This document shows, piece after piece, positions 6,759 through 40,043 of a DNA stretch of 64,000 nt (the stretch's first letter is position 1; each line of letters opens with the position of its first letter). The notes beneath the pieces are model-generated. The model did not search any database, had not been told where the DNA came from, and was given only the letters and a program-made list of their open reading frames with translations. Location: the NCBI GenBank assembly GCA_963663405.2, contig CAXXSM010000070.1:1-64000 (forward strand). The letters run 5' to 3'. The stretch is from a bacterium (GTDB taxonomy: Bacteria; Hinthialibacterota; Hinthialibacteria; Hinthialibacterales; Hinthialibacteraceae). Both the position numbers and the translations under genes were made by a program.

Positions 6759-9194
6759 ATGGATTTACGCACATCCAGTCAGATTACACGCAGAGCGAAA
6801 AAGAATTGGACGCAAGCGCTTTTTCAGCGGAAGAACCTATGGTGGGTGGTCATCGCCGCGATCGCTGTTTATTTCGTTTGGCCAATGGAAACCATCCGCT
6901 ACCGGACGGATAAAAGATTCGTCATTCTTGGTTTTGACGGCGTCGATCCCAGGCTTGTCAGGAAATATTGGGACGCGCTTCCGCATTTCCAGCGACTGGC
7001 GCAGGAAGGTTGTTTTACGGAACTGCAAACCGTAATCCCGGCGGAATCGCCGGTCTCGTGGTCCTCATTCGCCGTGGGGGGAAACGCGGGCCGGCACGGT
7101 GTGTTTGATTTTCTCCGTCGGCCCGTTGGGTCCTACATCCCGACGGAAGAGACCTTCTTGGAGCGGGAACAGCCTCAGTTTCTCTTCCAACAAATCCCGG
7201 TTAAATCATCCGGCGTAAAAAGGAGGCGGGGCGGAACCGCGTTTTGGGATGTGACCGGCTCCCTGGGGATCCCTACTACGTTGATTGAAGTGCCCGTGAC
7301 TTTTCCTCCACCCACTCTGCCGCATGGCTGCGCTCTTTCCGGCTTGGGCGTGCCCGACATCCGCGGATTGCAGGGTTCTCCCTATCTCTTTTTGTACAAA
7401 GAAGATGACTCCAAAGAGCTGGACGTGGATGATAAATCGATCGTGGTCGAGCGATTGGAAAAGGATGGGGATATCTATACTGGTTCGATCACAGGCCCTC
7501 ATAATCCCGTATTGGATGGGCAAAAACAGAAAATTGAAAAACAGCTCGTTGAAGCGCAACTTTCTTGGGCGGAATGGCAGTGTCATCTCTTTTCCATTCA
7601 AGGTCTGAGCAATATCGACGAGCAAGAACGACAGCTGGTATCGGATTATATCGGTCTGAAAGTTACGCAATACCTCGCTTTGCGGCCTTACCTCCAATCA
7701 GAGGCGTTGAGCGGCCGGATCGCCGCCGCGACGCAATTTCTGCGGGACGGTGGGACATATAGCAAAGATAAGAGTGTAACGAAAGGCAGCGCAGCGCGGG
7801 AGCGGATGCTCGCGGAAAGCAAAAAAGCAAACGAACTCCGGCAGCAATTGAAAGACGAAAAATGGAACCGCAAAATCAACGCGGAGATCCAATTCAAGAT
7901 CCTGGATGATGAGGCGGTTGAGATCCGTATTGGCAAACAGTTTCAGATCGCGAAACGGAACCAATGGAGCGATTGGTTCGATCTTTCATTTCCTGTTACA
8001 TCGTTTGTCACAATGCGCGCGATCAGCCGGTTTTATCCGATTCATATAGCCCCTGACGCGTTGGAAATTGTGATGACCTCGGCGGATATTGATCCACGCC
8101 GCCCTCATATACCGATTTCGTCTCCCAAAAAGTATTCGAAACAATTGGTAGATTGGATTGGCCAGCCTTACAAGACTCGTGGCTGGGCCGCCGAGACCGC
8201 CAGTTTAAAAGAAGGCTGCCTGCCGGAGGACGCGTTCATTGAAGACGCGTCTTTTGTCATGCGATTGCGGGAAGAGAAAACCTTCGAAACTTGGAAACGG
8301 ATGGACAGCAATCTTTTTGTCGCTGTTTTCTGTATTACCGACCGTGTCAGTCATATGTTTCACCATTACATCGATAAAGAACATCCGATGTACGATCCCC
8401 AAACCGCCCAGCGATATAAAGACACGATCAAACAGTTCTATATCCGTATGGATGAGATTGTTGGGCGCATGATGGAAGAGATCGGGGATGATCCAAATAC
8501 GGTTCTTCTTGTTCTTTCCGATCATGGATTTGAATCATGGCGGTATCAGGTCAATCTCAATCAGTGGCTTCTTCAAAATGGATACCTGGTTCGAAAACGC
8601 GGCGCGAGCAGTGGCGGTGGGATGGGTGAGCAGGGAAAAACGTCTTCAAAAGAGGATAATTTCTTTCCAGATGTGGATTGGTCAAAGACCCAAGCGTACG
8701 CGCTTGGATTGGGACAGATTTATATCAATTTGAAAGACCGGGAACCGCTTGGAATTGTTGATCCATCCGAGTATGACGCTCTTTGTGACGAAATCGCGTC
8801 GAAATTGGTTCAATTAAAAGATCCTCGTTGGATGCAATATGGAGATCCGGTGTTGATCGCCTGTCATAAACGAAAGGATATATGGACTGGAGAGTATGCT
8901 GATGACGCTCACGACGCGCCGGACCTGCAATGTGGATTCGCTCCCGGTTATCGCGTTTCCTGGCAGACGTGTTTAGGCGGGATCGGCGAGGACATCATTG
9001 AAGATAACCGGGAGAAATGGAGTGGCGATCATTGCAGCGTCGCCGCCCAGCGCATACCGGGAATTCTTCTGTGCAACCGGAAAATCGATATTGAGAAACC
9101 ATCGATTATCGACATCGCGCCCACGATTCTGCGCTATTTCAGTCAGGAACCGCCGGAATCAATGGAAGGCCACTCGTTATTTTTGGTGAAATGA
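6759..9194 (+). CDS. Alkaline phosphatase superfamily nucleotide pyrophosphatase/phosphodiesterase, N-terminal membrane anchor
   Basis: LGFDGVD, nucleophile region PAESPVSWSSF, HGVFDF, DRVSH, SDHGF, WSGDH. Confidence 0.85.
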   Translation: MDLRTSSQITRRAKKNWTQALFQRKNLWWVVIAAIAVYFVWPMETIRYRTDKRFVILGFDGVDPRLVRKYWDALPHFQRLAQEGCFTELQTVIPAESPVSWSSFAVGGNAGRHGVFDFLRRPVGSYIPTEETFLEREQPQFLFQQIPVKSSGVKRRRGGTAFWDVTGSLGIPTTLIEVPVTFPPPTLPHGCALSGLGVPDIRGLQGSPYLFLYKEDDSKELDVDDKSIVVERLEKDGDIYTGSITGPHNPVLDGQKQKIEKQLVEAQLSWAEWQCHLFSIQGLSNIDEQERQLVSDYIGLKVTQYLALRPYLQSEALSGRIAAATQFLRDGGTYSKDKSVTKGSAARERMLAESKKANELRQQLKDEKWNRKINAEIQFKILDDEAVEIRIGKQFQIAKRNQWSDWFDLSFPVTSFVTMRAISRFYPIHIAPDALEIVMTSADIDPRRPHIPISSPKKYSKQLVDWIGQPYKTRGWAAETASLKEGCLPEDAFIEDASFVMRLREEKTFETWKRMDSNLFVAVFCITDRVSHMFHHYIDKEHPMYDPQTAQRYKDTIKQFYIRMDEIVGRMMEEIGDDPNTVLLVLSDHGFESWRYQVNLNQWLLQNGYLVRKRGASSGGGMGEQGKTSSKEDNFFPDVDWSKTQAYALGLGQIYINLKDREPLGIVDPSEYDALCDEIASKLVQLKDPRWMQYGDPVLIACHKRKDIWTGEYADDAHDAPDLQCGFAPGYRVSWQTCLGGIGEDIIEDNREKWSGDHCSVAAQRIPGILLCNRKIDIEKPSIIDIAPTILRYFSQEPPESMEGHSLFLVK

Positions 9195-13862: not shown

Positions 13863-16500
13863 AATTTGTTCTCCTTAGGAAGATTGTTAGAACAAAAACC
13901 GGCGACGGTTCTCTGTTGATCAAACCATGCGCCGCACTCTTTCAAGAATTGATCTAGGTAGTAGTCAATTCGATCGTCGCTCTTTAGATAGATATCAAGT
14001 TGACGCGTAAAACCAATTAGACGCCCTATCATGGCAAGCCGGGTTTCCAGCATTTCTTCGGAAAGATTTTTAATCCGCCCCGAGATGAGATCCCCGTTGA
14101 TTTCGGTTACAAAGTCATATTTTTCTAAAATCAAACCAATTAACTGGGTTCGTCTTGAGCGCCGGCTAATGTCTGTCATACCACCCGTGAAGCGGAAATA
14201 AATATAATTCCTGTTGGATTCGGGGGACATTACACAATCAATGACATTGTAATGGTATCCCAATTTTAAACTGAGATTCAGATATTCTTGAGAAGCGATA
14301 GCAAGGTTTAACTCGACCGTGTTCGCTAAGGGGGACGCAGGAGAGGCGGAACCTATGGCGCTTGACATGAAGGATTCAAAATCCATCTCCGCTGGCTCGG
14401 TGATCCACGTTCCCGGCGAAGCGAGTCCAATAAGAATGGCGCGAAGAGGCTTACAGGTAATCTCTTCAATGGTTAGACGAGTCTGCCGGGATAAACCCGC
14501 GTGATTCGCATCGATGTCAATGACCAGAAGATCAAGAGGAGTGTCCATGTCTAGGCGTTGACATAAAGGATTCCGATGTATGGATTTGATATGATGATTT
14601 GAAGCGAGCTCAACCACTGCTTTTTCATGCGCGAAGCGAATGAGGTCATGGTATGTAGCGCAAAAAGCCGGGGAAAACTCCTTGGATTGAGGATCATGTA
14701 GATGAAGGGGGAGCGATACTCTTTAACAACCGGCGGAGAATACGAAACTCTACCGTGTCATTGTACGAAGAACTTCGAAGTAATTGCCACTGCAGTAGTT
14801 CTTGAACGATCCCTTTGTAAACAATGTTTTCTTCGGCGTCCACGGTGATCTCCATCCCGTCCTGAAGAGTGGTGGTGGCGGTGGAGGTATTGACGATCGC
14901 CGGAACTCGATATTCCCGGGCGATCGTCGCGAAATGACCAGTGGCGGAGCCTATGTCCGTAATCACGGCGCTTGCACGTGAAATCAGCTTCGACAATTGC
15001 GGAGACGCGTCTTTGGAAACCAGGATCGCCCCATCGGGGAACTGAGAGTCGTTTTCCGCGAATTGAACGAGAGAGACCCGTCCTGCGCCGATGCCACGGC
15101 ATGCGACCTCTCCCCGGCCCTGAAATAAGATCGAGTGTTTTCCGAAAGTATCCACAATATGTGGTACGTTTTCCTGTATATCAACATCGGATAACCGCAA
15201 AGGCCGGCATTGGAGTAGATACACTCGTTCTTCTGAATCGACCGCCCATTCAATATCTTGCGCGCATTTCATGAAGCGCTCAACGTGAAGCGCCAAATCC
15301 GTCAGATGGCGAAGGGCGCCGTCGCTGACAGAAGGCCTATTTTTTTGCTCGGAAGGAACCGAGACCAATTTAATCCCTCCCTTAGATTGTGATACGTACA
15401 TTGTTTCTTTGTTTGCGATGGTTTTTGAGACAATCGCGTGAGGGGTTTTGCGAGAGAGCGCAAAGCGATCGACGGGATGCCGGCCTTCCACAACCGATTT
15501 TCCATAACCCGGCGCTGCGGTAATCACTACGTGATCGCTCTTGGCAGCCAACGGATCGAGACTGTACACAACACCGCTGGCGACGGCGTGAACCATCACT
15601 AGGCAGCCAACTCCCATATACATTTTAGAAAGAGGCAAGTTGTGGTCTCTCCGATACATCAACGCTTCAATCGAGTATAAACTGGCTATTACGGATTTAT
15701 ACGCATCCAGAATTCGCTCCACCGGCACATTCAAAATGGTCTCATGGAGTCCTGCGAATGTCAATTCGCCATCTTCACCCAACGCGCTGCTGCGAACAGC
15801 CCAAAAAATCTCTTGTTTTGACCTGTACTTTTTCCGGGAAAGTGAATGGGCAGCCTTCAAAATGTTCCGCTCGATATCCTTTGGCACTGTAGCGTTTCGA
15901 ATCGCGTTTTGTATATCCTCCACAGCTTTTCTCTAGAAGAATTGGGTTCTCCGGCTTTTCTTGGAAGAGAGCATCCATCCTTTCAAGAATTCCATTTTCT
16001 TTTAAGAAACGCCAGCAGGCGTAGGCGGAAATCGCAAATCCTTTCGGCACGGCTGAAGGGAAATGAGTGGACAGATCTCCAAGGCGGGCCATTTTCTCTC
16101 CAACAACATTACTCCATTCCTGTCCAAGAGCCGAGAGATCGAAAACCATTTTATCTTCAAAAATCGCCACATCACCTTCCAGGCAGGCGTGGACTTGTCG
16201 TTTCAGGCGGTCAAATACTGTGATTAGATCCGTATAACGGTTCTCCGTCATGTAGTTTAAATCATACACAATCCTCCTTAGAGTTAGTTCGAGTTCGTCG
16301 ACTAGGTTTCGTAAATATTGCATGTCGAAGAGATACTCTCCTCCGAGTTTTTCTCCGGCGTCGGCGATCAGTTCCATCGCTTTGCAATTGGCGGATAATA
16401 AATCGCGAAACCATTCGATTTTCAAACGAACAGCCGCAAGTTCATTGGAAGCCGTTTGCCGGCTGAAAAGATTTCTCCAGAACCGAATCGCTGAAAACAT
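13859..16500 (-). CDS. PEP/pyruvate-binding domain protein (PEP-synthase-like), split by two apparent frameshifts
   Basis: Three consecutive ORFs (15775-16500, 14694-15923, 13859-14617) join into one protein. Motifs VGEKMARLG, VPKGFAIS, AVRSSALGED, FAG, QDIEWA, LLQCRPL, phospho-His GSATGHFATIARE, LGYHY, FTRQLD. Breaks fall at an A-run near 15926 and a G-run near 14707. Confidence 0.85.
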
Positions 16501-29550: not shown

Positions 29551-30999
29551 TTAGAAAATGCTCCAATCATCAACAGCCGGTTCGACTTCACCACGGGTAA
29601 CGGGCAACGGTCCTGCTGGAGCCGTATCGGGAAGCCGGTAGCCGACGGGGCCACCATCACCGGCGAGTGTCAGTTCCACCGCTCCTTCCATGAAGGTTGT
29701 GAGCACACGCCCATCCAGACGGAACATATCCGAAATGTCCGCAAGATCGAGTCCTCCCGGAGTTGTGATATCGACGTTCGCGTCTTCGAGTAAAAAATCG
29801 TCGCTTGGATCAATGTTCCAATTGTTCATGGAAATCCCAGTGACTTGCGCGGTTTCAGATCCGTAATTCCAGAATTTCGTATTGAACATGCTGCCAAAGA
29901 TATCGGGATCATCCGTATCGATGTTAATCTGGGCGTTGGGGCTGAGATCGACGCTGAGGATCATACAATTTTCGACAAGAACGTACGCGCCCATGCCCCC
30001 GCCCGTGTTGTGCCGCCATAACCGGGAGGAATCACGGAGTTGATGTTTGATTAACGTACAGTTCTTCAGATAGACATTTTGAGGATCGGCTCCCTCGGTC
30101 TCGATTAAGTTGATGTTCCATCCGTTAGCGGTATTGTTGCCCAGAACCACTCCGGCGAATTGTGGGTAGTCGTCTTCACTTAAAATGACACCATCCGCGT
30201 AGGCCGTGCCGCCCATCCCATCGGGCTGAACGAGCGCGTTCCAATCGTCGGTGAAGTAGCCTGCTTCGTAGGCTTCATCGATGGAGTTCCACGGCATATA
30301 CGTTTGGTGAAAGACGCAGTTGACAAAATACCCGTCTCCCATGTCGTCAAAGAAGATCCCGTCGTACACATTGTAAATCCACACATCATTCATAAAGGTA
30401 CGGCCACCACCGGCAGTGTGAACGACTCCGATGTTGTTATTGGCGTGGTCACCGATCGAAATGTTTTCAAACGCGGCGATGACGCCGTCCACATTGAAGC
30501 AGCGGCGGCCTGTGTACATCTGATACCCGATTTCCGCGGCCGCCTGTTCGTAATCGATCGCTCCATCCGCGCCGACTGGCAGTTCTGGATATTCATTGAG
30601 AAGCCCGAAACTGATCGCGGTCGCGCCGGGGTATGTTCCCATACCGCGTATGAGAATCCCATCCGCGCCGGAATCGCCAACCAGGGATGAAATGGAGATG
30701 GCGTTGATGTCCGAATTCCGCGCCGCCACATCTGTTTTGGCGAGTGAATTGTTTACGAACTGATATAAACCCGGTGTTAATTCGTATACCTCTAGATTGA
30801 ATGTTTCCTCCGCCGCCTGCCGAAACGTGGCGTCATCCATGTCATCCGTTCCAACGGACGAAAGTGTCACTGGTTCCGGATCGGCGGTTAGGTCCTCGGC
30901 GGAATAGACGCCTGGTGAGAGCGTGACGGCGGCGTGAGCGCCGGTCACGCTCAATCCAAAGATGATGGTGAATACTACTAGGCTGTATTTCGCGTTCAT
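29551..30999 (-). CDS. Secreted acidic protein with right-handed beta-helix-like repeats and C-terminal VDDWSIF tail
   Basis: AGGAGG RBS; signal peptide MNAKYS...GAHA; FENISI, MNDVWI, FVNCVF, LKNCTL, VENCMI strands typical of pectin-lyase-like beta-helices. Confidence 0.65.
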   Translation of the reverse strand: MNAKYSLVVFTIIFGLSVTGAHAAVTLSPGVYSAEDLTADPEPVTLSSVGTDDMDDATFRQAAEETFNLEVYELTPGLYQFVNNSLAKTDVAARNSDINAISISSLVGDSGADGILIRGMGTYPGATAISFGLLNEYPELPVGADGAIDYEQAAAEIGYQMYTGRRCFNVDGVIAAFENISIGDHANNNIGVVHTAGGGRTFMNDVWIYNVYDGIFFDDMGDGYFVNCVFHQTYMPWNSIDEAYEAGYFTDDWNALVQPDGMGGTAYADGVILSEDDYPQFAGVVLGNNTANGWNINLIETEGADPQNVYLKNCTLIKHQLRDSSRLWRHNTGGGMGAYVLVENCMILSVDLSPNAQINIDTDDPDIFGSMFNTKFWNYGSETAQVTGISMNNWNIDPSDDFLLEDANVDITTPGGLDLADISDMFRLDGRVLTTFMEGAVELTLAGDGGPVGYRLPDTAPAGPLPVTRGEVEPAVDDWSIF

Positions 31000-31145
31000 C
31001 AATTTCCTCCTGCAAATGGGTTTGAGAATCGTCTGTCTCTGTCGACAGTAAACAGATTGAATCTCCTCTCGTTTCAATATCTCAATTAAATAGTAAAAGG
31101 CTCTATACGTGTAACATACAACATTTTGGAAGAGGATTTCAAGAG

Positions 31146-32276
31146 TTATGATAGTTTGTCTGAAAACTGTTCTTTAAATTTTTTGAGGATGGAATCGTAG
31201 TGGGGGTTGGATTTATTTTGCAGTGTGATGGTCTGATCGTATTCTTCCATTGAATCGTGGGGCCTTTTGTCTCCTTGGCTGGTTGGGAGGGATTGCATCT
31301 GTTTCAACCGGAAGGTTTCGCCCCGGCAGGAGATGGATTGGGTGAATTGCGCGATATGAAGAATGGCGGTGGTGACTTGGGGGTGTTGTGATAGGTTTAA
31401 TTGTTTGATGAATGCTTCCGCATGGGCGGTTTGTTCGGCGTTGAATGAGAGGGATTGAGTATTTTCCACGAGCGCTTTGTTTTCCACGGATCTTTTGGAA
31501 CGAACGGCCGCTTCCAAGAGGCGGGATAGGGCGGTTAGAGACGCTTCGGGGCCAGTGAGAGTCCATTCGATATGATTGTCAATCCGCTGAAGGCGCGTCC
31601 ATTCTAAACCTGGTTCCGGGATGATTGTTTCGAAGCGTTCGGCGATATAGGAGAAAGCTTTCGCGAACGCTTCGAGGGTAAGGAAGGAAGAATCTATGTT
31701 GAGTTCGAGAACCAATCTGTCGAAATTGGGATCATCGAATGGGCTGGGCTGGTTTTGATCCGGTTTCCAGGTCCATTCTGGGGCCGGCGTGTCGATTCCA
31801 TCCGGCGCTAGATTCAGCCATTCGCATTTGAGTGCGCTTGTATCCCATTTATCCGCTTTAAGGTTGTGAACTTTTGCGCCGGTGAGAACAACGCCGGATA
31901 GGATGGTTTCCGAACCGTTTGCGTTTCGCAAATCGGCGTTTTCGAGATTGGCTTTGGTCAAATTGGTATGACTGAGATAGGCGTCACGCAGAGACGCGTG
32001 GCTTAGATTCGCCATCCCCAGCTTTGCGCGGCTGAGATTGGCTCCGTTCAAGATGGCCCAGCGGAGATCGGCGCTGCGGAGATTGGCGCCACGCAGCGAG
32101 GCTCCACTCAGATTCGCGTTTCGGAGGATCGCTCCCCGCAAATCCATGTTGTTGAGGTCGAGCCAGGAGAGATCGGCGCCGGATAGATCGAACATAGCGT
32201 CCTGGTGTGTTTCTAGATAGGTCTTGATCGCGTCACAACCTTGTTTGACGATATCGATATGTTCAGCGTTTGCCAT
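31146..32276 (-). CDS. Pentapeptide-repeat protein with uncharacterised C-terminal domain
   Basis: MANAEHIDIVKQG leader followed by about 20 A(D/N)LxG/x repeats. Confidence 0.88.
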   Translation of the reverse strand: MANAEHIDIVKQGCDAIKTYLETHQDAMFDLSGADLSWLDLNNMDLRGAILRNANLSGASLRGANLRSADLRWAILNGANLSRAKLGMANLSHASLRDAYLSHTNLTKANLENADLRNANGSETILSGVVLTGAKVHNLKADKWDTSALKCEWLNLAPDGIDTPAPEWTWKPDQNQPSPFDDPNFDRLVLELNIDSSFLTLEAFAKAFSYIAERFETIIPEPGLEWTRLQRIDNHIEWTLTGPEASLTALSRLLEAAVRSKRSVENKALVENTQSLSFNAEQTAHAEAFIKQLNLSQHPQVTTAILHIAQFTQSISCRGETFRLKQMQSLPTSQGDKRPHDSMEEYDQTITLQNKSNPHYDSILKKFKEQFSDKLS

Positions 32277-32973
32277 GGTTTATATTCCCCCCATTTCAGA
32301 GTTCATTGGGATTGTATTATAGGTTGCGGGTGACCGTCTACTCTCTTCCAACACGCCGTCACGCATGGAAGAAGGGATTTTATATTTTATTATACAGACC
32401 ATCAAAGGTTTTTATTTCAGCAGGTATTCGATAATCAGACTGTTTCGGGGGGATTGGATAATATATAAATTTTTCATCAGCTTTGGGCTGTGTGTGGTGG
32501 GGGTGGGCTGTATTTTAAATACCTTTGGGCGCGGACATAAGAGGATCTGGATTGTTTTGAATCAGTTAATGTTGGCAGTAGGGTGCATTATTATTGCTAA
32601 AACGATACAAAGTAATTATCCAAGGAACGGTTTGAGGATCGTTTGTCGATTTTATATTGGTGAGTAGATGGTTTAATGAGTGTCTATTAATGTTGAGGAA
32701 TAGATTTGATGATGGGACTTTATTTGTGGCTTTGGTAATTGAAATTTAATTGATGCATATTTTATATATATTAATGGTTGTAGAATGATTTATTATGTAT
32801 TAAGATAATATTATATATATCTATATTGGATTTAAGATTGTGTGATTCGATTAACTGTGTGTATGATTCGTGGATGATAAAGTATCGCGTTATTCATAAT
32901 GAAAATAACGAGTATCTTAACATTAGGAACCAAACTGGGGATGATTGATTTGGTGAAAAGGAGTGTGAGGTCA

Positions 32974-33369
32974 ATGACGGAAGAAGTTAAATTTGAGATA
33001 TTAGTCCCATCACAAGATTCCGAAGTGATTCATGAGATAGCAAAAGAGCTTAAGGAAGGTCAAGAGAATCAGTGGTCTGTGGATATTGAAGTCCATAGAC
33101 CCATGCCGTTCAGCAATGATTCATCAGTGGGAACTCGATCAGTGGAGGCTTTCGAGGTGATCAATGTCGTTTTAGGTGTTGGCAATCTTGCCCTACTCTC
33201 CACCCAGATTGGCATGGCGGTCAATCAGGTATTAAAATCGCAAAGTGTCACTACAGAAGTGGTTGTTAAGAGAAAAATGAAAGGGAAAAAAAGAGTGCAG
33301 CATATCATTCTTAAGGTGGGGGACTCGATTGAAGATATAAAAATAAAAGTAAAATCTCTCTTTGAGTGA
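32974..33369 (+). CDS. EACC1-like (effector-associated constant component 1) small protein
   Basis: 131 aa: acidic N-terminal helix, GTRS motif, one hydrophobic segment (VINVVLGVGNLALL), basic beta-rich tail. Overlaps the start of a caspase gene; AGGAG upstream of the ATG at 32974. Confidence 0.6.
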   Translation: MTEEVKFEILVPSQDSEVIHEIAKELKEGQENQWSVDIEVHRPMPFSNDSSVGTRSVEAFEVINVVLGVGNLALLSTQIGMAVNQVLKSQSVTTEVVVKRKMKGKKRVQHIILKVGDSIEDIKIKVKSLFE

Positions 33370-35200
33370 ATCTCCAATTATGCCGAAACAACCAGATGAA
33401 AATTCATCAAAATCTTTAGAATTTCTTAAGGCCGTTATTATAGGGATCGGTGGTTACCAGGAAGGTCCATTAATAAGTGTAGCCAACGATGCGATGCTGC
33501 TGACAGAAACATTCAGGCAAGTATGGCCTGAAAAGCAATGTGATATAACACCTCTTGTCTGGCCGTATTTCGCTGGCAATGTTAAGGATGACGGTCTAAT
33601 CCTGATGGCGCCGGATCCGATGCAAACCCGTGAGGCTTATACTCGATTCTGGAACAGCGAACCACCGGAAAACACGCGTCACGTCACAAAAGACGCGATT
33701 TTGCAAACCGTACTTAAAAAGGCTAAAGCAATTAATGATCAGGATACGTTTGTAATCTATTTTGGTGGTCATGGGATAGTAACAACTGGTGGAGAGGCAT
33801 GCCTTTCAGTTTTTATCGATGAACAAACTGATTCTGGAATAACCCTGCTTCCAATAAAAAAAATCTGTGAAACTGTCAGAGAGGCTAAATGCGCGAATTG
33901 TAATAAAGTAATGATTCTAGATTGCTGCCTTAATTTTGGTGAACTTCATAAGAAATCTATATTCCTGGAATTGCCTATGCCCACTAAGAAAGAATTGCTG
34001 GAGGCAGCGTCTGATTTCTTAGATAGCCTTCTCGATAGCGCCAAAGACTGGCATGTGCTTCTTTCTTGTTCCCCTGGACAAAAATCGTATGAAGATTTCG
34101 GTCGGGAAGGCCGTTATCATGGTATCTTCACGGTCGCGCTTGCTCAGGGATTGAAAGGATCCGCAAGAGTTGGAATTGGCGAACCAATTAGCTTACTGGA
34201 GTTAACGAATTATGTTCACCATCGTGTTCGTATGGATCCTATCGTCTTAAAGCATGAAGATATTGCGAAGAATCATCAAGCAAAATCAGGTGATTATGCA
34301 TGCAATGTCAGGGATACCGATCGGTGGAGTGAGAATCAGGAGTTTTCAAAGGATAAGAAAAATCGCGCCATTTTAGATGGTCAACACCCTATGTTATTAG
34401 CGCGAAAGGGTATCATTGGGGTAGAGCATCCATCATATTGGCGCCGAAACCCACTCGTCTAAAGACAGAAATGCGAAGAAAAAGACCTTCTAAGATGTTT
34501 TGGCGATTATTCAAGGATTATCTTTTTGGATCCTGGCCGATCGAGTTCTTTCATAAGAAAATGTTACAAGATGGGGGGGGCGCTACTATACGGAATGATT
34601 CTCCTACTCACTATGCAATGGTTTTTGCAATTGGGGGGAGTGGCAAGTTGGACAACTGCGATTGGTTGGGGATTATTAGGAGCTTTGTTGTGGTGGTTAT
34701 TTGTGCCTTTTGCCGTGGCGGCTAATGAAGATTGCTGGCATGCCGGTGGATATGTTACGAGTCTTTCATTCACGGCGCTTCATATTCTTCTGTGGTTTCG
34801 ACTTTGGATTCATATGTCCGGTTTGGATGGCGCTAAATGGAATGCAGAAACCATATTGTTGTGGAGTGGCGTTGAATTGTTTGTCCTATTGGCCATAGTC
34901 ATTGTATTCGGCTGCAATGGAGTTCAGGGAATGTTAGCGATCTCCGACAATATTCGCGAAGAACCGGATCGCCGTGATATCAGTGAAGCGTTGCGTGTTT
35001 TCCGCCATTTCCGAATGGGGCGCAGTACGGATGCGAAACTCAGCAATTTGATTGCCATGGTCAGCGCAAGTCCAAGAGTGTATTACATTTTATTGGGATT
35101 CTTTTCTCTTGGTTTGGTGGCTACTGCAATTCTCTATCTGTACTTTTTTCGGAACAACCATATTTATGGATTCCTATACTCAGAAATGGAATTGTTTTAG
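33362..35200 (+). CDS. Caspase-like (peptidase C14) protease with C-terminal multi-TM domain; split by apparent frameshifts
   Basis: AVIIGIGGY, VANDA, IYFGGHG (His), MILDCC (Cys), SCSPGQKSYE, HGIFT.AL..GL.G, QHP. Continues through ORFs 34438-34725 and 34526-35200, with breaks near G-runs at about 34418 and 34573-34580. May extend to 35252. Confidence 0.8.
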
Positions 35201-35275
35201 TACTCTGTTTTTGGTTTACATTCTGGTACAATGCGGCCTTTCAATATTTTGAGAGATATGTAGGGTGATCGGGAC

Positions 35276-35794
35276 ATGAAAAAACGTATAACTCATCTTA
35301 TTGCAGTGGCTCATACACAGTGGCAGATTGGTTTATCGTTTCTTGGTATGGTGATATTATGCATTTACTGGCGCAGCTGGAAGGATATCCCTCATCTCCT
35401 CTACGATATTCCGTCTGGCTTTATAATGAGCGCGTTCATCGCTCAACTTATCTGCCAAGCCTGCACGGGAGATTTTTCACCAAAATGGTGGGGCCGTCTA
35501 ACGGCTATGATTCCAATGAGTATCGTGCCAACAGGGAGAGAATTTCTCGATTGGCAGATATCGGGCCACCTGACGGATATGTTAGCGGTTGCATTGATCC
35601 AGGGTTTGGACCGTGAATGTTCTGTATGGGAGAGAATAGGTTATTCTATCCCCCTTCCGATTGTGTTATACATTCGGCTTACAATCTTTGATCAACCTGG
35701 CCATATGGAGACGATTTCCGCCATTTGTGTGGGAACCTTTATTTTCTTTCTAGCTAAAGGAGGCGAAATCTACGCAAATTGGAGAACACAGTGA
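35276..35794 (+). CDS. Hypothetical integral membrane protein
   Basis: 172 aa, about 5 hydrophobic segments, ISGH motif, ATG start. Confidence 0.55.
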   Translation: MKKRITHLIAVAHTQWQIGLSFLGMVILCIYWRSWKDIPHLLYDIPSGFIMSAFIAQLICQACTGDFSPKWWGRLTAMIPMSIVPTGREFLDWQISGHLTDMLAVALIQGLDRECSVWERIGYSIPLPIVLYIRLTIFDQPGHMETISAICVGTFIFFLAKGGEIYANWRTQ

Positions 35795-35939
35795 ATAAAT
35801 CAACTGGATATCTTCGATGGCTATTTTTAAGTATTTATCAGTGATTTGTGTGAATTATTAATTTGTCAATATTTTATTTCTCTCATTTTTATTCTGTGTG
35901 TAGAAATGATATCAGCTTTCTCTATACCTTGCCAATTTA

Positions 35940-37917
35940 GGCTCTTCGCTGAATCGAGTGGGTAGATTTGGGGAAGGCTTTCCTCCATCCTCCCGAAGAT
36001 ATATCGCTTACGTACCAATCCCGACGAGATAAACTAACAAGAAGGGCGGTGCTAGACCGTCCTTCGACAGTCTTCTTGGTCAGCACTCAGTTCGCGTCCC
36101 CGCAAGGTCCGATCCTCCGCCCAGGCTAAAGGCAAAGATCCCAATCCCAAGAGAGAGAGAGAGAGAGAAGGAAGAGAATGAAGAACCAAGAATTATTCCG
36201 GTTAGCGTTAGGTTTGAGTGAGCCATGGCAGGTCGTCCAGCCGAGTTTCCTGAGGAAGAAAAAACCTTGCACCTCACGCTGGACTTTCCCGAGGGGAGTC
36301 TGTTTCCCTGTCCCGAATGCGGGAACCTGTGTGGAGTGCATGATACGAAACGACGCACTTGGAGGCATCTGAATTTCTTTCAGTATGAGACGTATTTACA
36401 CGCCCGGCAACCTCGTGTGAAATGTCCCAATCATAAAGTCAAGACAGTGAATCTTCCCTGGGCCCGTCCGGGGGCGGGATTTACGTTGTTATTTGAAGCG
36501 TTGGTCATGGCACTGGCGGAGAATGGGATGACGGCCAATGCGATCAGCCGAGTGGTCGGAGAATATGACACGCTGATTTGGCGAGTGCTGACTCATTATG
36601 TGATGGACGCGCGAGAGAGGGAGGATTTTTCGGGAGTGAAGGCGGTGGGGGTGGATGAGACCTCAAAGGCCAAAGGGCACAATTATGTCAGCGTATTCAT
36701 GGATTTGGACGAGCGCAGCGTGATGTTTGCCACCGATGGAAAGGACGCTCAAACGGTGGGGGCGTTCAAAGAGGATTTAGAGACGCATAACGGAAAGGCG
36801 GAGCAGGTGGAGGAATTTTGTTTGGATATGTCCCAGGCGTTTCAATCCGGGATTGAAGCCAATTTCCCGGCCGCCGAAATGACATTTGATGAATACCACC
36901 TGATGAGGATTATCAATCAAGCTGTGGACGAAGTGCGCAAACAAGACCAAGCGATTTATCCCGAATTATTGAAGGGGACGAAGTATATTTGGCTGAAGAA
37001 TGAATGGAATCTCACGGACAAGCAAGAGAGAAACGGAACGAAATTTTTCAAGATGTACGAGGGAGCAAATTGAAGACGGTGAAAGCCTACCATCTGCGAT
37101 CCGTGTTCCAAGACGTGTTTTCGTTCGACGATCCGGAGGAGGGGAATCGTTTCTTAAAAAGTGGTATTATTGGGCGACTCACAGCCGGATTGAGCCTATG
37201 ATCAAGGCCGCGAAAACGATCAAGGAGCACTGGGCTGGTGTGGTGCGTTGGTTTACTTCGCGAATCAACAATGGTCTGTTGGAGGGATGAATAGCCTGAT
37301 CCAAGCCGCCAAGGCCCGTGCGAGAGGCTATCGCAACGTCAACAATTTAATCACTACCATCTATTTGATTGGAAGCAAGTTGGAATTCAATCTTCCCAAG
37401 GTTCTTCCCTCGCCCCACACGAAATAGTAATACGGCTTGAATCGTTCCCGTTTCTGCAGGCAAGCCGCCAAACTAAGCAAAAGACACCGGATGAAACGGC
37501 TGAGTCTCTCCGGTCTGCGATTCATGATCAGTAATCCGAACGAGTGAGGGCTTGTGGATTCTGCCATCTTATGGACAAACCGCCGATACTCTGGGTGAGA
37601 AGAGAAAGTTCCTGCCGGTTTGCCCACAAGATTTGGACAGCCACCTGCGAAAGATTAGGGGGAATGAGAAAGATTATTGAGGCGCCTGACCACAGACTCC
37701 ACAAGCATGCGGCACATAAAGATATGGTTCTTTTTTCTTCGATAAAATCCAGACCCGCAAACGGATCGATGGAGGGCAATCCTACTGCAAAATACTTGTC
37801 GCTTAACAGATATCGAAACGTCTACAAGTTGATCGTAACCATCTGTTTGGCAGAGGAAAATTGGAATGTAATCTTCTCGAGGTTCTACCCTCTACCCACA
37901 TGAAATAGCGAAGAGGC
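35940..37917 (+). mobile_element. ISL3-family insertion sequence with terminal IRs and 8-bp target-site duplication
   Basis: Left end GGCTCTTCGCTGAATCGAGTGGGTAGA; right end TCTACCCACATGAAATAGCGAAGAGGC. Perfect direct repeat CCAATTTA at 35932-35939 and 37918-37925. Confidence 0.92.
36178..37427 (+). CDS. ISL3-family DDE transposase (frameshifted in this assembly)
   Basis: LFRLALGL.EPW, CPECG zinc finger, WRHLNFFQY, PWAR..AGFT..FEA, GVDETS, CLDMS, FDEYH, NGLLEG, ARGYRN; ends PSPHTK-stop at 37427. Confidence 0.9.
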
Positions 37918-37922
37918 CCAAT

Positions 37923-40043
37923 TTATTCTTCCACCCCAATGCGTTTTAAGAATGGGCTGAAGGAGCGTTCGCGGCCTAAGAAGGCGTGGATGGATTCGTT
38001 GACGTCGCGGGAATCGCCTACCTCGTAGATTTCTTTTCGGAGGCGCATGCCAGCTTCGGTGTCGAGATAGCCGTTGGGGGCGTTTTCGAATACCGTCGCC
38101 ATGTCGGCGGCGATTACATCGGCCCAGGCGTAGCCGTAATATCCCGCGTCGTAGCCCATCAAGTGTCCGAAGTAGGAGACGAAGGAGGTGTCATCGGGAA
38201 CGGGAAGGAAGACTTTTGTAAGAATCGCATTGGATTCTTTAACGATATCCATTTCAGGATCGTATTCGCTGTGAAGCGTGATGTCGAGAAGCCCGAAGGA
38301 GAGTTGGCGGCGGTAAAATGTACCAATTGTCGCGCGGTCGGATTCGATGATCCGCTCAAGGACATCCGAAGGGAATTTCTTGGATGGATCGCGGTAATCC
38401 GCCGCGAATGAATCGAGAACGGCTTTGCTCTCCAACCAGTATTCCAACGTTTGAGAGGGAACCTCTACGAAATCGCGTGGCACGTTGGTTCCTGAAAACG
38501 CGGTAAACTCGGCGCGGTTAGAATTGTGTGGAGGCAATGGGCCGAATTCGTGGAATAACGTGACGACGTTGTCATAGGTCAGCAGGGAAGGCCGGTCTCC
38601 ACTGGGGGGAGGGAAGTTGCAGATTAACGCCGCTGTGGGGCGTTGGTAAATGTTGTTCTTCATCCGTTTCCCTGAGATGATACCGAATTGTGCGAAGTGG
38701 TTGAACTTGCCTTCGCGGGGGAACATATCGAGGTAAGCCAATCCAAGAGGTTCGCCGGTTTGGGCGTCTGAAATCACGTGGAGTGAAACGTCCTCATGCC
38801 AGCGGGAGGGGGGATCGACTTCTTCGATTTTAAGGCCGAAGATGGTTTCGTAAACGTTGAACATGCCCTCAAGCGTTTTTTCGTAGGGAAATAGACCTTG
38901 AGCGCTTCGGTGTCGACGGAGTAATTTTCTTTCATTAACTGATTGCGGTAGTAGCGCCAATCCACCAATGGATGGGTGGATTCTCTTCGCCTGTATCTTT
39001 GGCTTTTAGAGCGGCGAATGCGGCCAATTCTTTTCGAATTTCGGTTGGAGGCGCTGATAGAGATCGTTGAGGAATTCCTTGACGGTTTCGCCATTTTTCG
39101 CCATGCGCACTTCGGTTTGGTAATCGGCCCAGGTCTTGTATCCAAGTTTTTTAGCGATTGTGTCACGCAGGCCGATCACTTTTTCCAGGATGGGGAGATT
39201 CTCTTCCTTGGCGAGGGTGAAACGGGCGTGGAAGAGTTTTTTGCGGGTGGATTCCTTTTTGGTGTTATCCATGACCGTCGTGAAGTGCCAAGTGATGTTG
39301 GCCATGACGGTGTATTCGTCCTCGCCTGTTTTGATTCCTTCCTGGTTGAGGAAACTTTCAGGAACGCCTTCGAGATCCTCCAATGTGAAGAGAAGAGGAT
39401 GAGAGGCGTTGTTAATATTCATCCGGAAATCCAACGCCAGCGCCGCAAGTGTCTTTTTCAATTCTTCCAATTCCTGCCGTTCTTCTTTCGGCAGATCGAA
39501 GCCCAGCCGTTGGTATTCGCGAACCGTTTCTTTCAGGAATTTCGCTCGTTCACCCGTCAATTTTGGATTCGTCTCCGCGTAGGCTTTGATGGCTTTGTAT
39601 ACGTCTTCGCGGTATTGAAAGCCAACGTACCACTCTTGGAATTTCTTAACGGCTTGCGCCGCCGCGCCGCGAAGTGATTCGCTGGGGGCGGTTTCTTTAA
39701 TCAAATAAATGCGGCTCAGTTCCGAATCGAGCGTAAAGGAAAGATCGTCCAAGGCGCGGAGGGTTGAATCGAATGTAACCTTTGAAAGGTCCTGCTGAGC
39801 GATTGTGTCGCCTGCTTTCTCCGCGTCTGCGATCGCTTGATCGATGACCTTATGGACTTCCTCTTCCGCCGTTTCGAATGTTGGCGCGGTCAACTGAGAT
39901 TGGAACGCTTTCGCTTTTTCCTGATAGGATTTGAGTTTTTTCGAAACCGTTCCCGCTTCCGCCATGAGAACACCGGCGCCGATGATTGTGGCGAAGCCGA
40001 TGTGAAGTACCATTAAAGAACCGTCTAAACCAAAGATTTTCAT
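37923..40043 (-). CDS. M3-family (thimet oligopeptidase-like) metallopeptidase, split by apparent indels
   Basis: AKKLGYKTWADY..MAK, DWRYY, YLDMFPREGKFNHFA, VTLFHEFG (HExxH disrupted by local indels), RDFVEVPSQTLE, FGHLMGYDAGYYGYAWA, FLGRE. Confidence 0.88.

Follow-up and report, generated by a model that had tools for sequence, protein, structure and literature searches.

EACC1–caspase modules rank among the most widely distributed protease-gated death systems of bacteria, yet a single one has been tested. They were described as a two-gene conflict system ('System 4') with up to 50 alternative C-terminal domains, and the available portion of that account reports transmembrane (TM) helices in at least 33% of the EACC1-linked caspase proteins, one of the forms being TM + PBP (Kaur et al. 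2020, PMC7159879). The tested system is EACC1–KrAvs12 of Ktedonobacter. According to the accessible part of the preprint, its caspase domain makes a single cut in EACC1, the resulting C-terminal fragment is by itself toxic and permeabilizes liposomes, the C-terminal module of KrAvs12 is the sensor, and the N-terminal part of EACC1 together with two C-terminal strands forms a sheet around a hydrophobic helix (Evans et al. 2025, bioRxiv 10.1101/2025.11.14.688446). In EACC2–caspase proteins, an N-terminal alpha+beta domain is fused to the caspase, and the C termini listed in the available text include multi-TM regions and trypsin-like peptidases (Kaur et al. 2021, PMC8195603). Here we describe a locus of the EACC1–caspase kind in a 64,000-nucleotide (nt) stretch of DNA (positions 1 to 64,000 of contig CAXXSM010000070.1, assembly GCA_963663405.2; hereafter the window) from a bacterium of the Hinthialibacteraceae. 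On the plus strand, an open reading frame (ORF) for a protein of 131 amino acids (aa; P0001) is followed by an ORF for a C14 caspase-like protease (P0006) and then by hydrophobic, Trp-rich frames that extend to about 35268. The original prediction for this locus had read these parts as an EACC1-like protein coupled to a caspase with a membrane tail.

On balance, we favour the view that the locus is a protease-gated cell-death module of the EACC1–caspase type, probably anti-phage, that is rare and very divergent and whose gene is probably intact. The module is real and conserved and is best taken as a variant of the described design, with no new principle, and the copy in the window is probably intact but mis-assembled; we infer its functional steps.

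A caspase joined to a conserved membrane tail

The protease matched Pfam PF00656 (Peptidase_C14) over residues 23-290 with 55.7 bits (E = 7.6e-15; cut-off 21.4). Its best NCBIfam match was NF047832, 'caspase, EACC1-associated type' (61.2 bits, E = 9.4e-17), although this score does not reach the curated cut-off of 140 bits. The His/Cys dyad was correctly described as intact by the original prediction: His131 (in GHG, 33770-72) and Cys183 (in DCC, 33926-28) fall in G-H-G and D-x-C columns that are invariant in five aligned caspases, namely those of the window, P0007 and L036 (both introduced below) and two from canonical EACC1 loci. A profile search of the PDB with the protease placed plant, yeast and trypanosome metacaspases nearest (best E 3.1e-5), followed by MALT1, with no animal caspase among the matches; searched as a single sequence, the protease matched nothing in the PDB. 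Like the metacaspases (C14B; AtMC4 (6w8s), AtMC9, Yca1 and TbMCA2), the protease has a His/Cys dyad whose Cys is preceded, two residues earlier, by an Asp. The similarity is weak and lies mainly in the N-terminal half, and metacaspases have neither a membrane tail nor an EACC1 partner.

The relatives of the protease carry the evidence that the hydrophobic frames belong to it. Among 1983 candidates, a search with the caspase returned two proteins at E <= 0.001: the query itself and P0007, a metagenome protein of 612 aa that is 42% identical and holds caspase and tail in one ORF, its extra 270 residues corresponding to the tail of the window. Of 251 genomes of the Aminicenantes class, five matched, and only two contained caspase and tail together. 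The first is a Candidatus Aminicenantes metagenome-assembled genome (G793), in which a 706-aa ORF (L036) joins a homologue of the small protein, the caspase and the tail in one chain; the second (G919) encodes a 576-aa caspase–tail ORF (L041). A pattern scan of contigs found L036 and missed L041, and is therefore not exhaustive. The caspase–tail combination is rare, with four known loci. In the open frames of P0007, L041 and L036, the caspase shares one polypeptide with a conserved membrane domain that spans about 277 aa and six predicted helices, which supports the earlier assignment of the TM frames to the caspase gene. The layout is thus that of a small gene immediately 5' of a gene that encodes the caspase first and a C-terminal module after it. 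The small gene and the caspase gene had been described as overlapping. An overlap (of 8 nt) requires TTG 33362 as the start of the caspase, whereas ATG 33380, the start that agrees with the N terminus of P0007, leaves a gap of 10 nt. After the triple-fusion gene L036 lies a gene for a YhcG/DUF1016 PDDEXK nuclease (6985-8034, plus strand), which may point to a mobile-element or defence context there.

The tail comprises about 277 codons, 15 of the 277 residues being Trp. Hydropathy and an all-helical AlphaFold2 model, with a predicted local distance difference test (pLDDT) score of 50, indicate about six membrane helices, within the range of five to seven Trp-rich helices first proposed, and positively charged stretches suggest that both ends of the tail are cytoplasmic. 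The tail is better conserved than the protease: identity to P0007 is 51% in the tail core versus 45% in the caspase ORF. The sixth helix segment is 39% identical to residues 552-609 of P0007 (second segment of a tblastn alignment). The core carries the motifs WW..FAVAANEDxWHxGGYVT and GCN..Q and a charged loop, R.E.DRRD. Of the 277 columns of the tail, 53 are invariant across the four copies, among them WW..PFA.AANE[DE].WH.GG.VT, the charged loop as R...[DE]RR[DE] and a terminal FW..AAF. The tail matched no family in Pfam and no look-alike in the Atlas, and Foldseek found no PDB match at E <= 0.001 with the model at pLDDT 50, which is poor; the description of the tail as unrecognised therefore stands. 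No copy was found in 100 genomes of relatives, nor did the genome of the window yield a second one.

Frame breaks in the tail

In the window, the caspase and the tail are distributed over several frames. From a three-frame translation and alignments with P0007, L036 and L041, we traced a conserved path that follows the caspase frame to about 34430, frame 1 through ATG 34471 to a run of eight G, frame 2 to a run of six T and frame 1 again to TGA 35266-68. The alignment of P0007 to the window by tblastn is colinear from residue 14 to residue 609. Both homopolymer frameshifts noted by the original prediction are real frame breaks, but a third change is needed near 34427-34435, upstream of the caspase stop codon TAA at 34460. 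The last ORF as first delimited (35052-35252) is in the wrong frame, as the conserved frame 1 ends at 35268 and not at 35252.

We consider assembly error the likeliest source of these breaks because ordinary genes of the same window are broken in the same manner, and the window gene is therefore probably intact and fused. The rival account accepts the same architecture and holds that this copy is dead: the breaks would be real, a tail-less caspase of 360 aa would be made and the module would be decaying beside an insertion sequence (IS) element. We regard recent decay as unlikely but as a serious contender. In its favour, three breaks fall within about 720 bp of tail and none within the 1.5 kb of small gene and caspase, and a broken ISL3 transposase, its DDE domain spread over two ORFs, lies 1 kb downstream. 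Three further observations count against assembly error. The first break falls outside any homopolymer; frames of at least 200 codons take up 78.9% of the genome, so that overall assembly quality is not poor and errors are not everywhere; and no read or contig spans the breaks, which leaves real decay some weight. The contigs of the only read run with this stretch cover 32900-34061 alone, where they are identical at a depth of 2-2.6, with 34062-35689 uncovered.

Against decay, every frame segment still encodes conserved protein, with 49% identity to P0007 over 277 residues along a path without an internal stop, and housekeeping-type genes of the window are broken likewise. Signatures of frame switching are also enriched genome-wide at 8-base runs: they were found at 8 of 51 runs of G or C and at 58 of 304 runs of A or T, compared with 105 of 2373 random positions, counts that omit runs and positions in no long frame. 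That the breaks are programmed is very improbable.

Two other genes of the window show frame breaks of their own. A Peptidase_M3 gene (37923-40043, minus strand) is divided in colinear order among three ORFs, which match positions 2-89, 61-137 and 129-456 of the model and split at a T6 run at 39147 and a G6 run at 38808. Near 38520-38550, two one-base indels that compensate each other at a distance of 25 nt disrupt its HExxH motif, a pattern that speaks for indel errors of the assembly. A gene for a PEP-utilising enzyme (PPDK_N plus mobile domain; 14694-16500, minus strand) is divided in two at an A6 run at 15803-15808, with the PPDK_N model matched at positions 2-55 and 66-320.

The small protein as a remote EACC1 relative

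Sequence comparisons place the small protein, with some reservation, as a remote branch of EACC1 beyond the reach of the Pfam model. The GTRS motif and the hydrophobic helix described by the original prediction were both recovered: V-G-T-R-S occupies residues 52-56 and is followed by a Gly-containing helix (VINVVLGVGNLALL), backed by hydropathy and aligned to the Gly-rich EACC1 helix. In the AlphaFold2 model (pLDDT 62), the order of elements is E-H-E-loop-E-H-E-E-H, with strand 4-11, helix 16-28, strand 34-41, loop 43-58, strand 60-68, helix 69-89, strands 95-101 and 109-114 and helix 119-130. The protein thus has, as described for EACC1 (Kaur et al. 2020), one hydrophobic helix with small and Gly residues flanked by short alpha+beta elements, and the model agrees with the account of the tested EACC1 given above. 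Loop 43-58, which contains the Thr-Arg pair, has a pLDDT below 50 and is predicted to be disordered.

Relatives of the small protein are few. A HMMER pass over 1.84 billion representatives found P0002 and P0003, at 31-32% identity (E = 5e-8 and 1e-7); P0002, P0003 and P0005 sit on contigs of 1.1-2.8 kb. A hidden Markov model (HMM) of the three members matched the N terminus of L036 (20.3 bits, E = 2.2e-8 for a single target; hhalign 90.8%), and the same genome encodes a standalone homologue of 133 aa (L049, E = 2.2e-14). With P0001, these make up a family of five, in all of which the Thr-Arg ahead of the hydrophobic helix is invariant. The lineage is rare, these five being its known members. 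A word-index search returned the query alone, both with the single sequence and with the three-member profile, and scans of loci with the family gave no matches in genome contigs or metagenome contigs. P0004, a 975-aa repeat protein from the HMMER pass, was rejected as a spurious low-complexity match (eight stretches, the reported one covering 20 query residues).

Profile–profile comparison carries the link to EACC1. True EACC1 genes were gathered with PF19953, which exceeded its cut-off in 1 of 401, 2 of 251 and 28 of 151 genomes, and 27 of the 32 extracted sequences entered the reference alignment after five near-duplicates of one clade had been omitted. Against these 27 proteins, hhalign gave 49.5% (E = 1.7e-4) for the three-member family profile, 77.8% (E = 1.9e-5) for four members and 86.8% (E = 4.3e-6, 114 colinear columns) for all five. 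The match is full-length and colinear at every profile size, at a probability below 90%. None of 200 column-shuffled controls reached the three-member score of 30 (mean 9.7, maximum 16.9), and the reversed profile scored 12.8. PF19953 was the top Pfam match of the L036 N-terminal domain (23.0 bits, E = 7.9e-5, model positions 5-105 of 107), 0.6 bits under the gathering threshold of 23.6 bits. In the Atlas, the second-ranked cluster for the small protein has PF19953 in 22% of its members (score 0.91, 178 of 256 features), and 3 of 30 hits belong to the PF19953-bearing set.

Other results weigh against this assignment. The window's protein has no PF19953 match even at E <= 10, only one of the five family members comes near the cut-off, and the three-member family HMM retrieves no true EACC1 genes in three genomes that hold them. 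Confidence in both structure models is low, with a pLDDT of 62 for the small protein and one of 50 for the tail, and the fold search returned only a generic ferredoxin-like sandwich, the best match (Z 8.3, VIA wide) being to a designed ferredoxin-like protein and within background. The EACC1-like label thus holds as remote homology, by profile–profile comparison and by the borderline Pfam match of L036, but not by the Pfam model itself. PF19953 exceeded its cut-off neither in the window's own genome nor in any of 35 genomes of its phylum, in a search able to miss real matches. These blank results weigh little because the same kind of genome search, run with PF00656, missed this locus's own caspase, so that its first pass is not exhaustive; direct hmmscans are the real test. 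The window's GTDB phylum is represented by only 35 species genomes in the collection, none of which has PF19953 or the tail.

The small protein might instead belong to another alpha+beta family, EACC2 or an unnamed one, its likeness to EACC1 being convergent. The missing Pfam match, the hhalign probability below 90% and the generic fold would fit this account, and the order of L036 (alpha+beta domain, caspase, multi-TM) is that of the EACC2–caspase proteins as described in the available text (PMC8195603). We nevertheless hold convergence to be improbable: the EACC1 profile match is full-length, colinear and far above the shuffled controls, EACC1 is the top Pfam match for the L036 domain, and the Gly-containing hydrophobic helix lies at the same position as in EACC1. 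The immediate neighbours scanned (29551-32276 and 35276-37290) include none of the genes that go with EACC2–caspase proteins (TRADD-N, ECF sigma factor or DUF1822); they carry pentapeptide repeats, ISL3 or no family.

A candidate mechanism and cut site

By analogy with the tested Ktedonobacter EACC1–KrAvs12 pair, we infer the following steps for the EACC1–caspase reading. The small protein would be a latent, soluble pro-toxin whose hydrophobic helix is buried in the alpha/beta fold. The six-helix domain would serve as the input module and keep the protease at the inner membrane face, off until a membrane-borne signal arrives. The activated protease would then cleave within the disordered loop of the small protein, most likely on the C-terminal side of the invariant Arg55, and the C-terminal fragment, consisting of the hydrophobic helix and a beta-hairpin, would assemble into pores and so cause cell death.

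Arg55 is the most likely cut site given the invariance of Thr-Arg, its position in a predicted loop and the kinship of the protease with metacaspases, which cut after Arg or Lys. Two points speak against it. Glu61 is an alternative candidate, as it aligns with a conserved Asp of canonical EACC1, and the putative cut in the Ktedonobacter protein, as given in the accessible part of the preprint, is after Asp and not Arg (bioRxiv 10.1101/2025.11.14.688446).

Complex prediction lends weak support to binding between the protease and the small protein. Modelled with caspase residues 10-300, the pair scored 0.35 (runs 0.53, 0.35 and 0.31) and the best of three controls 0.00, with an agreement between runs of at least 68% of contacts and a partner pLDDT of at least 71. 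The mark used is reached by 116 of 157 solved complexes and by 2 of 215 mismatched pairs; at scores of 0.60 or below, only 18 of the 157 solved complexes passed, together with both mismatches.

The partner genes of the relatives bear on how tightly the three parts are linked. No EACC1-like gene lies upstream of L041, and the family profile found none elsewhere in that genome (best E 0.087); the pairing of caspase–tail with an EACC1-like protein is therefore not obligate, which tells against the mechanism outlined above. One small-protein paralogue that keeps the Thr-Arg pair, L049, adjoins a trypsin-like serine protease instead of a caspase (G793:C378, 1474-2998, minus strand, directly upstream of the EACC1-like gene), and a homologue of the same protease (L041, 3251-4342, plus strand) lies directly downstream of the partner-less caspase–tail gene in G919. 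Because of the trypsin-linked paralogue and the trypsin gene beside the partner-less caspase–tail, we also considered a broader reading. Here the six-helix domain, with its AANE[DE]xWHxGG motif and charged loop, would be a new bilayer sensor that gates the caspase, and the Thr-Arg EACC1-like pro-pores would be protease-agnostic death effectors that an Arg-specific protease of either the caspase-like or the trypsin-like kind could set off. This reading is speculative and, in our estimate, rather unlikely to hold in full. The invariant Thr-Arg together with the trypsin-like partner of one paralogue nonetheless gives a testable prediction of the cut site. The trypsin-like family is expanded in the Aminicenantes-class genomes, with seven places in G793 and two in G919, and is found at none in the window's genome.

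A further possibility is that the roles are reversed, so that the small membrane-active protein senses a signal and activates the caspase, and the effector would be the six-helix tail, perhaps as a pore that autoproteolysis releases or opens. Such an arrangement would agree with the occurrence of L041 as caspase plus tail without an EACC1-like partner. It also has precedent in the parts of the literature available: EACC1 has been proposed as a membrane sensor, with the effector role assigned to the C-terminal domains (Kaur et al. 2020, PMC7159879), and a possible role as membrane pores is mentioned for the multi-TM C termini of EACC2–caspase proteins (Kaur et al. 2021, PMC8195603). However, in the sole tested system, as far as the accessible text of the preprint goes, it is EACC1 that is cleaved and acts as the death effector, with a C-terminal fragment that suffices for toxicity and permeabilizes liposomes (bioRxiv 10.1101/2025.11.14.688446), and the small protein here keeps the architecture of the tested EACC1, including the exposed loop with its invariant Thr-Arg. 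We therefore give the reversed arrangement little credence and retain the small protein as the putative effector and the tail as the putative input.

Relation to described systems

The locus resembles the EACC1–caspase system in three respects: a small 5' gene with an alpha+beta core around a Gly-containing hydrophobic helix, an exposed loop between the N- and C-terminal halves of the small protein, and a 3' gene product with the C14 caspase first and a variable C-terminal module after it. It differs in that the small protein is below the Pfam EACC1 threshold, in that the loop has an invariant Thr-Arg where canonical EACC1 has P-G-x-M-G, and in that the six-helix domain belongs to no known family and is not STAND, DGR, PBP or similar. 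One relative (L036) fuses all three parts, and one small-protein paralogue adjoins a trypsin-like protease with no caspase. L036 shares with EACC2–caspase the order of alpha+beta domain, caspase and variable C terminus. Unlike EACC2, which was compared by description only, the window's small protein is encoded by a separate gene and its profile matches EACC1. The same logic operates in bacterial gasdermin–protease systems, in which a neighbouring protease strips an inhibitory part from a latent pore-former; bacterial gasdermins differ in that the pore protein is of an unrelated fold and family and carries its inhibitory part at the other end.

A membrane-tethered caspase beside an EACC-type protein is a published design, because the available portions of Kaur et al. 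2020 and Kaur et al. 2021 both report TM forms. The suggestion of a new sensor type therefore has to be narrowed: as a class, EACC1-linked caspases with TM helices were known before (at least 33% in Kaur et al. 2020), and what is new is this conserved six-helix domain; the parts of the EACC1 literature available contain no description of it. New here are an EACC1 lineage below Pfam detection, the specific family-less six-helix domain with its polar intramembrane or interfacial motifs, the triple fusion L036 and an invariant Thr-Arg accompanied by a swap of partner from caspase to trypsin. The lineage widens the EACC1 family past what the Pfam model detects. L036 is a natural 'Rosetta stone', with effector, protease and membrane domain in one chain, and supports a joint working of the three parts. 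The compact, conserved membrane domain is the only candidate input module and would make a simple case for the activation of a caspase by a membrane signal.

Features and neighbourhood of the locus

Table 1. Positions of the features of the module in the window.
Feature	Position	Strand	Frame or shift	Basis and remarks
EACC1-like small protein P0001, 131 aa	32974..33369	+		ORF, homologues and profile comparison
Thr54-Arg55, candidate cleavage site	33133..33138	+		In low-confidence loop (residues 43-58)
Hydrophobic Gly-containing segment, residues ~57-89	33142..33240	+		Hydropathy; counterpart of the conserved EACC1 'TM' helix
C14 caspase-like protease P0006, 360 aa as assembled	33380..34462	+		Stop TAA 34460-62; alternative start TTG 33362
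Frame break 1	34427..34435	+	Caspase frame to frame 1 (-1)	Not a homopolymer; comparison with P0007, L036 and L041
Linker and basic/amphipathic segment before TM1	34432..34578	+	1	Includes ATG 34471; aligns with P0007, L036 and L041
Frame break 2, G8 run	34573..34580	+	+1	Homologues imply one G fewer
Tail core, TM1-TM5	34580..35143	+	2	Hydropathy and conserved columns
Frame break 3, T6 run	35144..35149	+	-1	Homologues imply one T more
TM6 and C terminus	35146..35268	+	1	Stop TGA 35266-68

The module has a G+C content of 0.41-0.46 and the spacer upstream one of 0.32-0.38, compared with 0.51-0.55 in the flanking genes and a genome mean of 0.469, so that the AT-rich island of the original prediction is confirmed. 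PADLOC recognised the caspase and nothing else in the module, scans for promoters and terminators at the locus gave results no better than shuffles, and no tRNA was found between 20 and 45 kb of the window.

Directly after the tail gene lies a hydrophobic ORF of 172 aa (35276-35794, plus strand) without a Pfam family. Among 100 other genomes it had one weak, stop-containing match only. The homologous loci L036 and L041 lack this ORF, which therefore probably does not belong to the module. The ISL3-family transposase gene (36225-37290, plus strand) lies 1 kb beyond the downstream end of the module, and its DDE domain is broken between two frames at about 37000-37073. Two further C14 caspase domains occur elsewhere in the window's genome (G000:C91:133-861 and G000:C4:84809-85351, both on the minus strand), inside open frames of 950 and 2904 aa. 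Upstream of the module, on the opposite strand, lies a pentapeptide-repeat gene.

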